Origin: Heterodontus francisci
Lineage: Eukaryota
DNA: 64,000 nucleotides
Direction of reading: 5' to 3'
Assembly: GCF_036365525.1 (NCBI RefSeq)
Contig: NC_090380.1
Span: forward strand, 79,485,784 to 79,549,783
Position 1 is the stretch's first letter. Each line of letters opens with the position of its first letter. The notes beneath the pieces were generated by a model that had not been told where the DNA came from, ran no database searches, and was given only the letters and a program-made list of their open reading frames with translations. A program made the position numbers and the translations under genes. Shown one piece after another: positions 2,965 to 6,309 of the stretch.

Positions 2965-3510
2965 TTTTAAAAATGTATTTGTTCTTGGGATGTGAGCATC
3001 GCTGGCAAGGCCAGAATTTATTGCCCATCTCCACTAGCCCTTGAGAAGGTGGTGGTGAGCCGCCTTCTTGAACCACAGCAGTCCATGTGGGGTAGGTACA
3101 CCCACAGTGCTGTTAAGGAGGGAGACTCGGCAACAGTGACGGAACAGCAATATAGTTCCAAGTCATGATGGTGTGTGACTAGGAGAAGAACATTCAGGCG
3201 GTGGTGTTCCCATGCATCTGCTGCCCTTGTTCTTCTAAATGATAGAGGTCGTAGGTTTGGTATGTGCTGTGAGTTGCTGTAGTGTATCTTGTATATGGAA
3301 CACACTGCTACCACTGTGTACCTATGACGGTGGGCGTGAAGCTTCTTGAGTATTATTGGAGCTGCACTCATCCAGGCAAGTGGAGAAAATTCCATTGCAC
3401 TCCTGAGTAAATAGTGGATAAATTTTGGAGAGTCAGGAGATGAGTTACTTGTCACATACTTGTCACAAGTCTTTGGCTTTGTCTTGTAGCCACAGTATTT
3501 ATATGACTGG
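2965..3510 (-). mobile_element. 3' fragment of LINE family B (CR1/L2-group, tRNA-headed family)
   Basis: Homologous to 47400-47990, with the characteristic tail gatgggcaataaat..ggccttgccagcga. Confidence 0.75.
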
Positions 3511-3904
3511 CACTTTCAGCAGGTCTGTCATAGCAGAAAAATAATGCTGCAGACTAACAAAAAAAATAGATGAAATGAAAGAAAAACAAATGATCAATAC
3601 CCCCTTGGGGAAGTGCAAGAGAAAAACGAAGGTTGCTGGGAAGCAGAAATCTTAGTGGTGAAAAATAACACCAACTTCAAGTTAGATACAGGAGTAGCAG
3701 TTTCTGTCCTATCTGTTAAAACACCATGGCTGAGGAAGGAAAGGCTTAGGAAAACTTACAAGAAATCACATGAGCCAGGAGGAATTCAGATAAGGGTTGC
3801 AGGAGAAACACACAGAAATAACACCATTCCAGAAACTCTGTATGGTTATATAGAACCAAGCCTGTTCACTACTCGGTAAGAAAGCTTGTTTAGCTTTACT
3901 CAGG

Positions 3905-5675
3905 GTGGCAGCAGATCGTCCTGGACAATTCTTCTTTGGTGGTCTGAATACTGAAACAAATGAAAAAGCACTTGAAGTAGTATTTGACAAATATGGAAGA
4001 ATACTGCTGATAAAAGGTGGTGAAACAAATAAGTCAAGGGGTTTTGCTTTTGTTACTTTCGAAAATCCAGGAGATGAGAGGGATGCAGCCAGGGATATGA
4101 ATGGAAAGTCTTTGAATGGAAAACCCATTAAGGTAGAGCAAGCTACTAAACCAGCATTTGAAAATATTGGAATAGACCACCCCACCCCCAAGAAGCTGTG
4201 GCCCTTCTAGGGGGATTCGAGGTGGAAGAGGAGGTAGTGGAGGAATGAGAGGTCCACCTCAAAAAGGTGAGCACGGTGAATGGATTCAGGAGATGGAACA
4301 GTGCTACCTTAAGAGGAATATACATTTCTTTAGGAGTCCTGACCCATCGGATGATATGGGAGCATACACTGTCTCCTCCAGAGGGCCACCATTGAAAAGG
4401 GGTCCCCCAGGCCATGCAAATGGACCACCACCTAAAACATCCCTTTCTTCAGGGCCAATGCGAAGTAGGTGAATGGGTGGAAGAGGAAGTGGCTCAAGTG
4501 GATCTCCCTCACGTGAAAGGGACAGTTATGGTTTGCCTCCATCTCACAGAGATATACCATCCAGAAGAGGTGATTATATTGTGACGACCAAGGTGGGAGA
4601 AATGCACTGTTAATTCAGTCCCACTTTACCATGGGTCACAGCATATCAATAAATGTTTCCACCCACTGAAATATAGACATTTTGACTCTATTTGTCCCCC
4701 AGAATAAAGCACACCAATCAGGTTTCTTTAAACAACAATAACATTAACTATTTATTAGAAAAGAGAATAGGTCTTAACCACTAATGAGATAAATCTACAT
4801 ATATGAAAAGCTCCTTATTTCTCTAGCCCTCATGCGCACACACACATACATTTAAAAAAAAACAGTTAACCGGGGAAGAAAAGGATTCTGGTTTACAGCT
4901 GTTTCATAAGAATAAAAGGAATAATAAAATAATTCAGTTCATCACGTTCTGGTAGGAGATTCTTCGGTTGGGTGAGGTGTCCAAGAGTTGAATAGTCAGA
5001 TGCCACCAGATGTGTCTCCAGGCGAGGATGATGAACAGTCTGTGATGGGTAGGCATTCAAGGCAATTTGACTACAGTAGGCATCACATAGGTCTTTCAGC
5101 AGGGGTGCAGCAACAGGTCTGCTTAGGACTCACAGCAGCAGTACAGTAGTAGAAGCTTTCTTCAGGTTCCAGGATTTCCCAAAACTCAGCAGGCAACAGG
5201 AACCACACTGGATGCAGGAATTCCTCAGAGACAGGAGGCAATAGGAATCTGCTACTGTTGAAATACAGGGTTTCTTTTCAAGAGATGCAAGTTTCCTTTA
5301 CAAAGAGAGGTCTTTTCTGGGTCTTCCACTTTGATCTCCAAGCAGGACTGAAATCAAATTTCAAAATGCCTGCTCTTTGTCCAACTCACTGGTTTTTAAA
5401 AAGGTCCATCGTGAAAGTAAACCTTCCTTAGCTGATTACATGACCAGACACAGTATCTCCTCTGTCATTCAAAGTGTTCCTCTGAGGAGGTGAAAACCCC
5501 TGGCTGGCTTCCTTGAAACTGCTTGCTTTCTTCTTCTTCTATACAAAGTCAACATCCTAAAATTGCAGGTGTCCATATCCACTGAAAAATCATTTTTTCA
5601 GTTTTTTTTAAAACACATGGAATTCTAAGATTTTAGTACAAAAATAAAACCTCTTGTAACAATATGTCAAGAGAG
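3905..5675 (+). pseudogene. RBMX: RBMX (hnRNP G) retrocopy, 3'-truncated, interrupted by a solo LTR at 4580-5661
   Basis: [84 protein letters not shown] matches the RBMX RRM. It continues into [23 protein letters not shown] and RERDSYG..PSRRGDY|MSRE. No ATG, with frameshifts and a stop. The RRM is intronless. Confidence 0.9.
4580..5661 (-). mobile_element. Solo LTR (~1.08 kb)
   Basis: TGTGAC...GTAACA termini and 4-bp TSD ATAT (4576-4579 / 5662-5665). The left end is the reverse complement of the 3' end of the LTR at 55152-56184. Confidence 0.85.
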
Positions 5676-6309
5676 GTCAATCCAAACAGAGAATCATGAT
5701 GGACGCTATAGAGCAAAAAATCAAACAGACCTATGACCTGAAGATTTGGTTTGGATCAAAGATCAGGCGCGATGTGGGGAAGTGATGGGGAAATCTCCAT
5801 ATCCTCGATCCTACATAGTCCAGACAGACCAGGGATGGATAAGAAAAAATAGAAGGTCATTGGTACTGACATCACAGAAAAAAAACAAATGGGAAAAATT
5901 CAAGAGAATCGGCTATCAAGAGAGCTGATGAACCGGTGATACAATGAACAACAGATCACCCAGATGACAGCAAAAACAGAGAACCTGAGTCACACAGGAA
6001 TGTGAGGAATAAGAACCAAAAGATCCAATACCCCAAACAAGTGAAAGAACACCACGCAATGGCAGAGTCGTGAGAACCCCACAACGTTACAAACCTGATG
6101 AATGATGTCAGAGACCTGGAGGGAGATCGCACAATGTAGATGGGGTAGATGTAGCTGGGTAGATTATGTACATAGACCTTAAGCATCATCATAGGATGTG
6201 ATATCATGAGTCTGAACCAGTGTTAATGTAGATGCCTTAGAGACAAGACCCCTGTATAAAATAAATCCTGTTGCTTTGACCCAAAGTCTACTATTCTCAT
6301 TTAATATTA

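Follow-up and report, generated by a model that had tools for sequence, protein, structure and literature searches.

In retroviral oncogene transduction, gag-onc fusions carry host coding sequence behind the 5′ retroelement ORF, where it replaces pol. LTR-mediated retrocopies of cellular mRNAs are on record from several animals, fish among them (Tan et al. 2016, PMC5131818). In that survey, 5/7 young retrocopies in zebrafish and 4/10 in chicken were assigned to LTR elements, microsimilarity was present at 25/29 fly junctions, 14/21 older LTR-mediated retrocopies carried disabling mutations, and in four older cases the LTR remnant was lost on one side.

We analysed a 64-kb stretch of DNA (the window, to which all coordinates refer) from the shark Heterodontus francisci, in which a fragment of RBMX (hnRNP G) lies inside a Ty3/Gypsy element. 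As in gag-onc fusions, host coding sequence stands in frame behind a 5′ retroelement ORF and pol is replaced; unlike in oncogene transduction, no env, infectious phase or cargo selection is seen here. The locus resembles the cases described by Tan et al. (PMC5131818) in having a partial spliced mRNA in place of internal ORFs, discontinuous flanks, sense orientation, truncation at both ends and more so at the 3′ end, and neither poly(A) nor target site duplication (TSD) for the copy. It differs in its host, a shark and thus from a group outside the survey, and in that the copy is ~6% diverged at conserved coding sites and is without a 5′ LTR. FAM8A1/HERV-K, maize Bs1 and yeast Ty assays, as cited in PMC5131818, also present a host mRNA fragment between parts of one LTR element. 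Bs1, however, has several parents, 1–5 copies and a probable function, whereas the shark locus derives from a single parent, is known in one copy and has no intact ORF. Mammalian RBMX retrogenes made by L1, such as RBMXL2, derive from the same parental gene and were likewise copied through RNA, but RBMXL2 is reported to be a functional retrogene, while the shark copy is half-length, disabled and inside a Gypsy element. In the open-access literature we found no report of LTR-mediated capture in a shark or of RBMX. A VGP preprint treats retrocopies across 579 vertebrates; LTR capture is not discussed in the part of its text covered, and such loci may be listed in its supplements or in the ones to Tan et al.

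Organization of the locus

The window consists of repeat-rich vertebrate DNA, chiefly decayed LINE copies, and has no Rfam match across its 64 kb. The chimera and its surroundings comprise the following features.

2976–3510, minus strand: 3′ portion of the older LINE that hosts the LTR element (72–80% identity to the LINE copies at 47355–47983 and 25478–25864)
3511–3600, plus strand: end of Ty3/Gypsy gag, with the H-x4-C half of the zinc knuckle and a linker (aligns from residue 246 of P0122, a Gag-Pol protein of 1314 aa)
3601–3903, plus strand: retropepsin-type protease, DTG at 3685–3693 (phmmer, P0122 alignment, Atlas retropepsin clusters at 0.93)
3905–4579, plus strand: spliced RBMX/hnRNP G coding fragment from codon 2 onward, with RRM and RGG/Pro region (Pfam, PDB, protein alignment)
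4576–4579: left TSD copy (ATAT) of the solo LTR (from the sequence)
4580–5661: solo-LTR-like insertion, TG...CA, 1082 bp, later than the chimera (TSD)
5662–5665: right TSD copy (ATAT) of the solo LTR (from the sequence)
5666–5676, plus strand: last ~11 nt of RBMX (M-S-R-E versus parental I-P/Q-R-E-D; 3 nt shared with the integrase alignment)
5674–6087, plus strand: C-terminal tail of integrase with the end of pol, from the Gypsy lineage of the left flank (P0122 residues 1178–1311, E 1.5e-11)
6118–6126, plus strand: polypurine-tract-like stretch GGAGGGAGA (from the sequence; putative function, from its position)
6127–6312, plus strand: 3′ LTR of ~180 bp (start at 6127 or 6135), with AATAAA and terminal CA (LINE resumes at 6313)
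6313–7321, minus strand: continuation of the host LINE (lacks, between 3510 and 6313, 1,268 bp that the copy at 45.5–48.0 kb has)

The insert is a spliced and disabled part of RBMX

The identification of the insert as RBMX, proposed by a first-pass annotation made from the sequence alone, was confirmed by three comparisons. Pfam gave an RRM_1 match (window 3854–4207, E 3.9e-15), the best PDB match of the RRM ORF was RBMX (2mb0, E 7e-40), and the two frames 3905–4177 and 4182–4577 together were identical to RBMX isoform X1 of Mustelus asterias (P0003) at 190/221 residues. Pfam was blank for the other three of the four proteins submitted (protease, RGG and integrase-tail ORFs). Among 116 named matches of the RBMX fragment, sharks scored highest (1004 for Mustelus, P0003; 772 for Scyliorhinus, P0002), followed by rays (747 and 701), a chimaera (653) and the best mammal (630).

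Altogether the copy holds 686 nt of RBMX coding sequence, codons 2 to ~237 of 417. Vertebrate RBMX has introns in the captured span. A stretch of 675 nt is collinear with shark RBMX protein, and since gaps of intron size are absent, the source was a spliced mRNA. The copy lies in sense orientation and is incomplete at both ends, with the larger loss at the 3′ end. It has suffered a 9-nt deletion inside the RRM, a frameshift near 4178, one stop and a 3-nt deletion, and 21/157 conserved codons (those identical in all five chondrichthyan proteins) are changed, which corresponds to ~6% per nonsynonymous site. Past the right junction the RBMX frame meets a stop 7 codons on. The copy is now a pseudogene without an intact ORF, not a functional retrogene or a domesticated fusion. 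One 35-residue segment (window 4266–4370 in the RBMX frame) occurs among the stored proteins only in the Mustelus isoform X1 model. Its presence in a retrocopy is independent evidence that isoform X1 is really transcribed in sharks.

The solo LTR is a later insertion

Beyond the right TSD of the solo-LTR-like element the RBMX frame resumes, so this element landed inside RBMX after the chimera existed. Patterns of the M-S-R-E type seen there occur at 0.0002–0.0007 per site across the window. As RBMX runs ~11 nt past the TSD, the solo LTR is ruled out as the maker of the right junction. That RBMX continues on the far side of the solo LTR had been noted before, with limits of 5662–5675; these have to be shifted, because 5662–5665 is the TSD of the solo LTR and the RBMX tail spans 5666–5676. 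The solo LTR has no ORF over 92 aa. A related solo-LTR-like element (1033 bp, TG...CA) is present at 55152–56184; 635/969 aligned bases (~66%) are identical to 4580–5661, and its 4-bp flanks are nearly identical (TAAG/CAAG).

Both flanks match one Gag-Pol lineage

On the left, 3511–3889 aligned with residues 246–376 of P0122 (E 5e-18), with 43/82 residues identical in the protease. An exhaustive phmmer search with the protease returned 44 hits, P0122 at 51%, while a word-based protein search with the same decayed sequence gave 65 candidates, none with E ≤ 0.1. The top phmmer hit, P0121, was dropped; it is a repetitive protein without a tblastn match to the window. The gag remnant at 3511–3600 probably contains two frameshifts, to judge from its reading frames, and the protease has a frameshift near 3843 and a stop at 3851. 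Its C-terminal stretch (3854–3903) is in frame with RBMX codon 2 in an ORF spanning 3854–4210. The protease, the order and the strand thus agree with the first-pass annotation of a Gypsy Gag-knuckle and DTG protease ahead of RBMX; the full knuckle does not, as only its H-x4-C half is left.

On the right, the core of the integrase tail was identical to P0122 at 27/64 positions. It contains a stop at 5734 and is out of frame with RBMX. Only 2/43 retained phmmer hits, P0122 and P0137, have the motif of the integrase tail, and each of them aligns with the right flank. A word-based protein search with the tail gave 4 candidates, none with E ≤ 1, and an Atlas search with the tail alone was weak (best 0.86). 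An integrase C-terminus, a polypurine tract and an LTR had been predicted downstream of RBMX, and all three are found there, in the match to P0122 1178–1311, the purine tract at 6118–6126 and the LTR reaching 6312. Only the predicted LTR end at 6297 has to be moved, to 6312, immediately before the flanking LINE resumes.

P0122 matches both flanks collinearly and on one strand, with 52% identity on the left and 42% on the right, and has its domains in Ty3/Gypsy order (RVT_1 473–628, RT_RNaseH 718–825, Integrase_H2C2 939–993, rve 1007–1097). By protein comparison, both flanks are of one Gag-Pol lineage, though not necessarily of one DNA family or copy; the lineage may be Mag-like. Flanks from unrelated elements, which would have spoken against capture, were thus not found. 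About 793 P0122 codons are missing between the flanks (2.4 kb: RT, RNase H and integrase core), exactly at the position of RBMX. The gap had been placed correctly but put at several kb, which is too much compared with P0122. In P0137, gag and protease lead straight into the integrase tail, and RT, RNase H and integrase core are lacking; this protein may have arisen by deletion of pol within the same Gypsy lineage, or it may be an artefact of gene modelling.

A second Ty3/Gypsy element, likewise decayed but from a different lineage, occupies 56700–61911 on the minus strand, with remnants of gag, knuckle, RT, RNase H and integrase. It is broken up by other repeats, and no LTR pair was identified. 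Its integrase is only ~27% identical to P0122, and comparison of the element with both RBMX-side flanks gave no convincing match.

The element is set into a LINE and has lost its left end

The sequences on either side of the whole block are two parts of one LINE, whose homology breaks off on the left at ~3510. A long, continuous LINE ORF2 remnant on the plus strand (45498–47993) served as reference for the loss of 1,268 bp. Within this remnant, 45498–45710 matches 7107–7321 in opposite sense to the rest, which suggests a small inversion in one of the copies.

Also absent on the left side are the 5′ LTR, the primer binding site and ~245 codons of gag. The loss of the 5′ LTR is probably secondary, because it coincides with the gap of 1,268 bp in the host LINE, and the simplest reading is that one deletion after integration took the 5′ LTR, most of gag and the LINE stretch. 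Large deletions thus happen at this locus. Only the 3′ LTR remains, and a second copy of the 3′ LTR is absent from the 64-kb window. With the left side deleted, LTR dating and a check for the TSD of the element are impossible.

Junctions between RBMX and the Gypsy element

A TSD or poly(A) tail around the RBMX piece had been named beforehand as evidence that would count against capture. Neither was detected: the longest word common to both junction regions has 4 nt, a length reached or exceeded by 1982/1992 random pairs, and there is no A-run of more than 6 nt within 150 nt after the RBMX end.

At the left junction, 5/13 relatives that extend far enough have [RK][VI][ED] right after the protease end (Cys+8), a pattern found at 2/1314 positions of P0122. 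RBMX starts with M-V-E; in the window, R-V-A stands at Cys+5, three codons nearer to the protease Cys than in the relatives. This is a hint of a stretch common to element and RBMX, in agreement with the GGTGG proposed earlier as candidate microhomology; judged from the alignment, R-V-A would fit such a stretch only with a further 9-nt loss. The bases before RBMX codon 2 could also be read as RBMX 5′ UTR. This reading is less favoured, as K precedes Met in 9/18 extended RBMX models, including that of the catshark, and the window differs. At the right junction, 3 nt belong to both the RBMX-like and the integrase-like alignment.

Origin of the chimera

We consider LTR-mediated retroposition by double template switching to be the probable origin of the chimera and the best explanation of its structure. 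RBMX mRNA would have been packaged together with the element RNA in a Ty3/Gypsy particle. Reverse transcriptase may then have jumped from the integrase tail to the RBMX mRNA at ~codon 237, and, on reaching the RBMX start codon, have returned to the element immediately behind the protease. The resulting cDNA, with 0.69 kb of RBMX replacing 2.4 kb of pol, would have been inserted by integrase into the older LINE, as the clean LTR end at 6312 suggests. A different solo LTR then entered 11 nt inside the RBMX 3′ end, as indicated by its TSD. The deletion that cost the locus its 5′ LTR, most of gag and a 1.27-kb stretch of LINE presumably also followed integration, and decay of all parts afterwards is evident.

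Capture is favoured because the two flanks align in order with a single Gag-Pol protein, of which RT, RNase H and integrase core are missing only where RBMX lies, because the second Gypsy element in the window does not resemble the flanks, and because a spliced, sense, 5′- and 3′-truncated RBMX without poly(A) or TSD is the pattern described by Tan et al. As a rough argument, it is also favoured because the rival routes need a chance sense landing in a Gypsy element, and Gypsy sequence makes up ~8% of the window by span, together with a deletion that spares the flanks. Against capture stand the loss of more than 1.27 kb at this locus, which makes a late deletion a live route, and P0137, which, unless it is a gene-model artefact, means that pol-less derivatives may pre-exist in the lineage.

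The relative age of the two parts was compared by their decay. In the protease, 4/25 columns conserved in ≥80% of relatives are changed, compared with 21/157 in RBMX (P=0.75); at 70% conservation the protease count is 6/34 (P=0.59 versus RBMX). The similar decay of both parts is compatible with co-insertion, although the comparison has little power, with 25 columns and relatives that themselves mismatch in 126/1058 cells.

In agreement with the first-pass annotation, LTR-mediated capture is the most likely origin, but an insertion by LINE or repair followed by one deletion would look alike. The earlier annotation had missed this route, in which a single deletion removes the 3′ half of RBMX, the poly(A), the TSD and pol together. 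In its LINE version, a LINE-made processed pseudogene of RBMX landed after the protease of a resident Gypsy element, and one later deletion took the RBMX 3′ half, the poly(A), the right TSD and 2.4 kb of pol. One insertion and one deletion suffice for this, LINE remnants abound in the window, another kb-scale deletion is present at the locus, and RBMX is described as forming retrocopies in mammals (PMC10923852). We nevertheless regard it as unlikely. It needs a sense landing in the Gypsy interior and a deletion with one end in RBMX and the other in integrase; the Gypsy part was not found to be more decayed than the RBMX part, although this comparison has weak power; and poly(A), TSD and an intact 3′ end are all absent, although the later deletion could have erased them.

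Less likely still is a double-strand break in a resident Gypsy element that was patched by an RBMX cDNA fragment while target DNA was lost (endonuclease-independent insertion). A single step of this kind would give the same anatomy, and such insertions are described as structurally unlike classical L1 insertions and tied to target deletions (PMC1920257). However, that description concerns 21 human loci and L1 itself, not cellular mRNA, and a chance sense landing in the Gypsy interior would again be needed. That the flanks come from unrelated elements, or that RBMX arrived by DNA-level recombination from an existing pseudogene, is very improbable: identities of only 52% and 42% to P0122 indicate the same lineage, not the same copy, and the Atlas result for the integrase tail alone was weak (0.86), but the matches to one protein are collinear and on the same strand, the window's other Gypsy element belongs to a separate lineage, and two halves of one LINE enclose the entire block.

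If the locus arose by LTR-mediated capture, it would extend LTR-mediated retroposition to cartilaginous fishes. With half a gene fused in frame to genes of a retrotransposon, the RBMX chimera is a clear example, both old and nested. Since documented cases of the mechanism already exist from zebrafish and chicken and the copy is dead, the general picture stays as it was; many copies with common junctions, if they exist, would raise its importance. No second copy of the chimera was found in the 64-kb window or among the protein matches listed.

Coding potential of the chimera

The suggestion that the locus may be a working non-autonomous gag-pro-RBMX element does not hold for the present copy, in which every coding part is disabled. 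At its birth the chimera might have encoded an in-frame fusion of Gag, protease and hnRNP G (RRM and RGG), ending 7 codons past the right junction, and might have spread as a non-autonomous family with a host-derived RNA-binding domain packaged with Gag, which would make it a shark retrotransposon analogous to a gag-onc transducing retrovirus. We consider this unlikely; the part of it seen in the window is the in-frame join at RBMX codon 2. No protease-RRM fusion appeared among the best 120 of 295 matches (longer proteins only), which have the RRM with or without PF08081 alone. A protease motif was present in 0/18 N-terminally extended proteins among the 116 named matches. As the search covered the longer proteins, this is weak evidence against a fusion.

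Elsewhere in the window, a LINE reverse transcriptase has an open stretch of 529 codons on the minus strand (19972–21558). As this is the longest ORF in the window, it probably belongs to a young LINE copy. Its neighbourhood has inverted matches of 88–93% at 57.5–58.5 kb.
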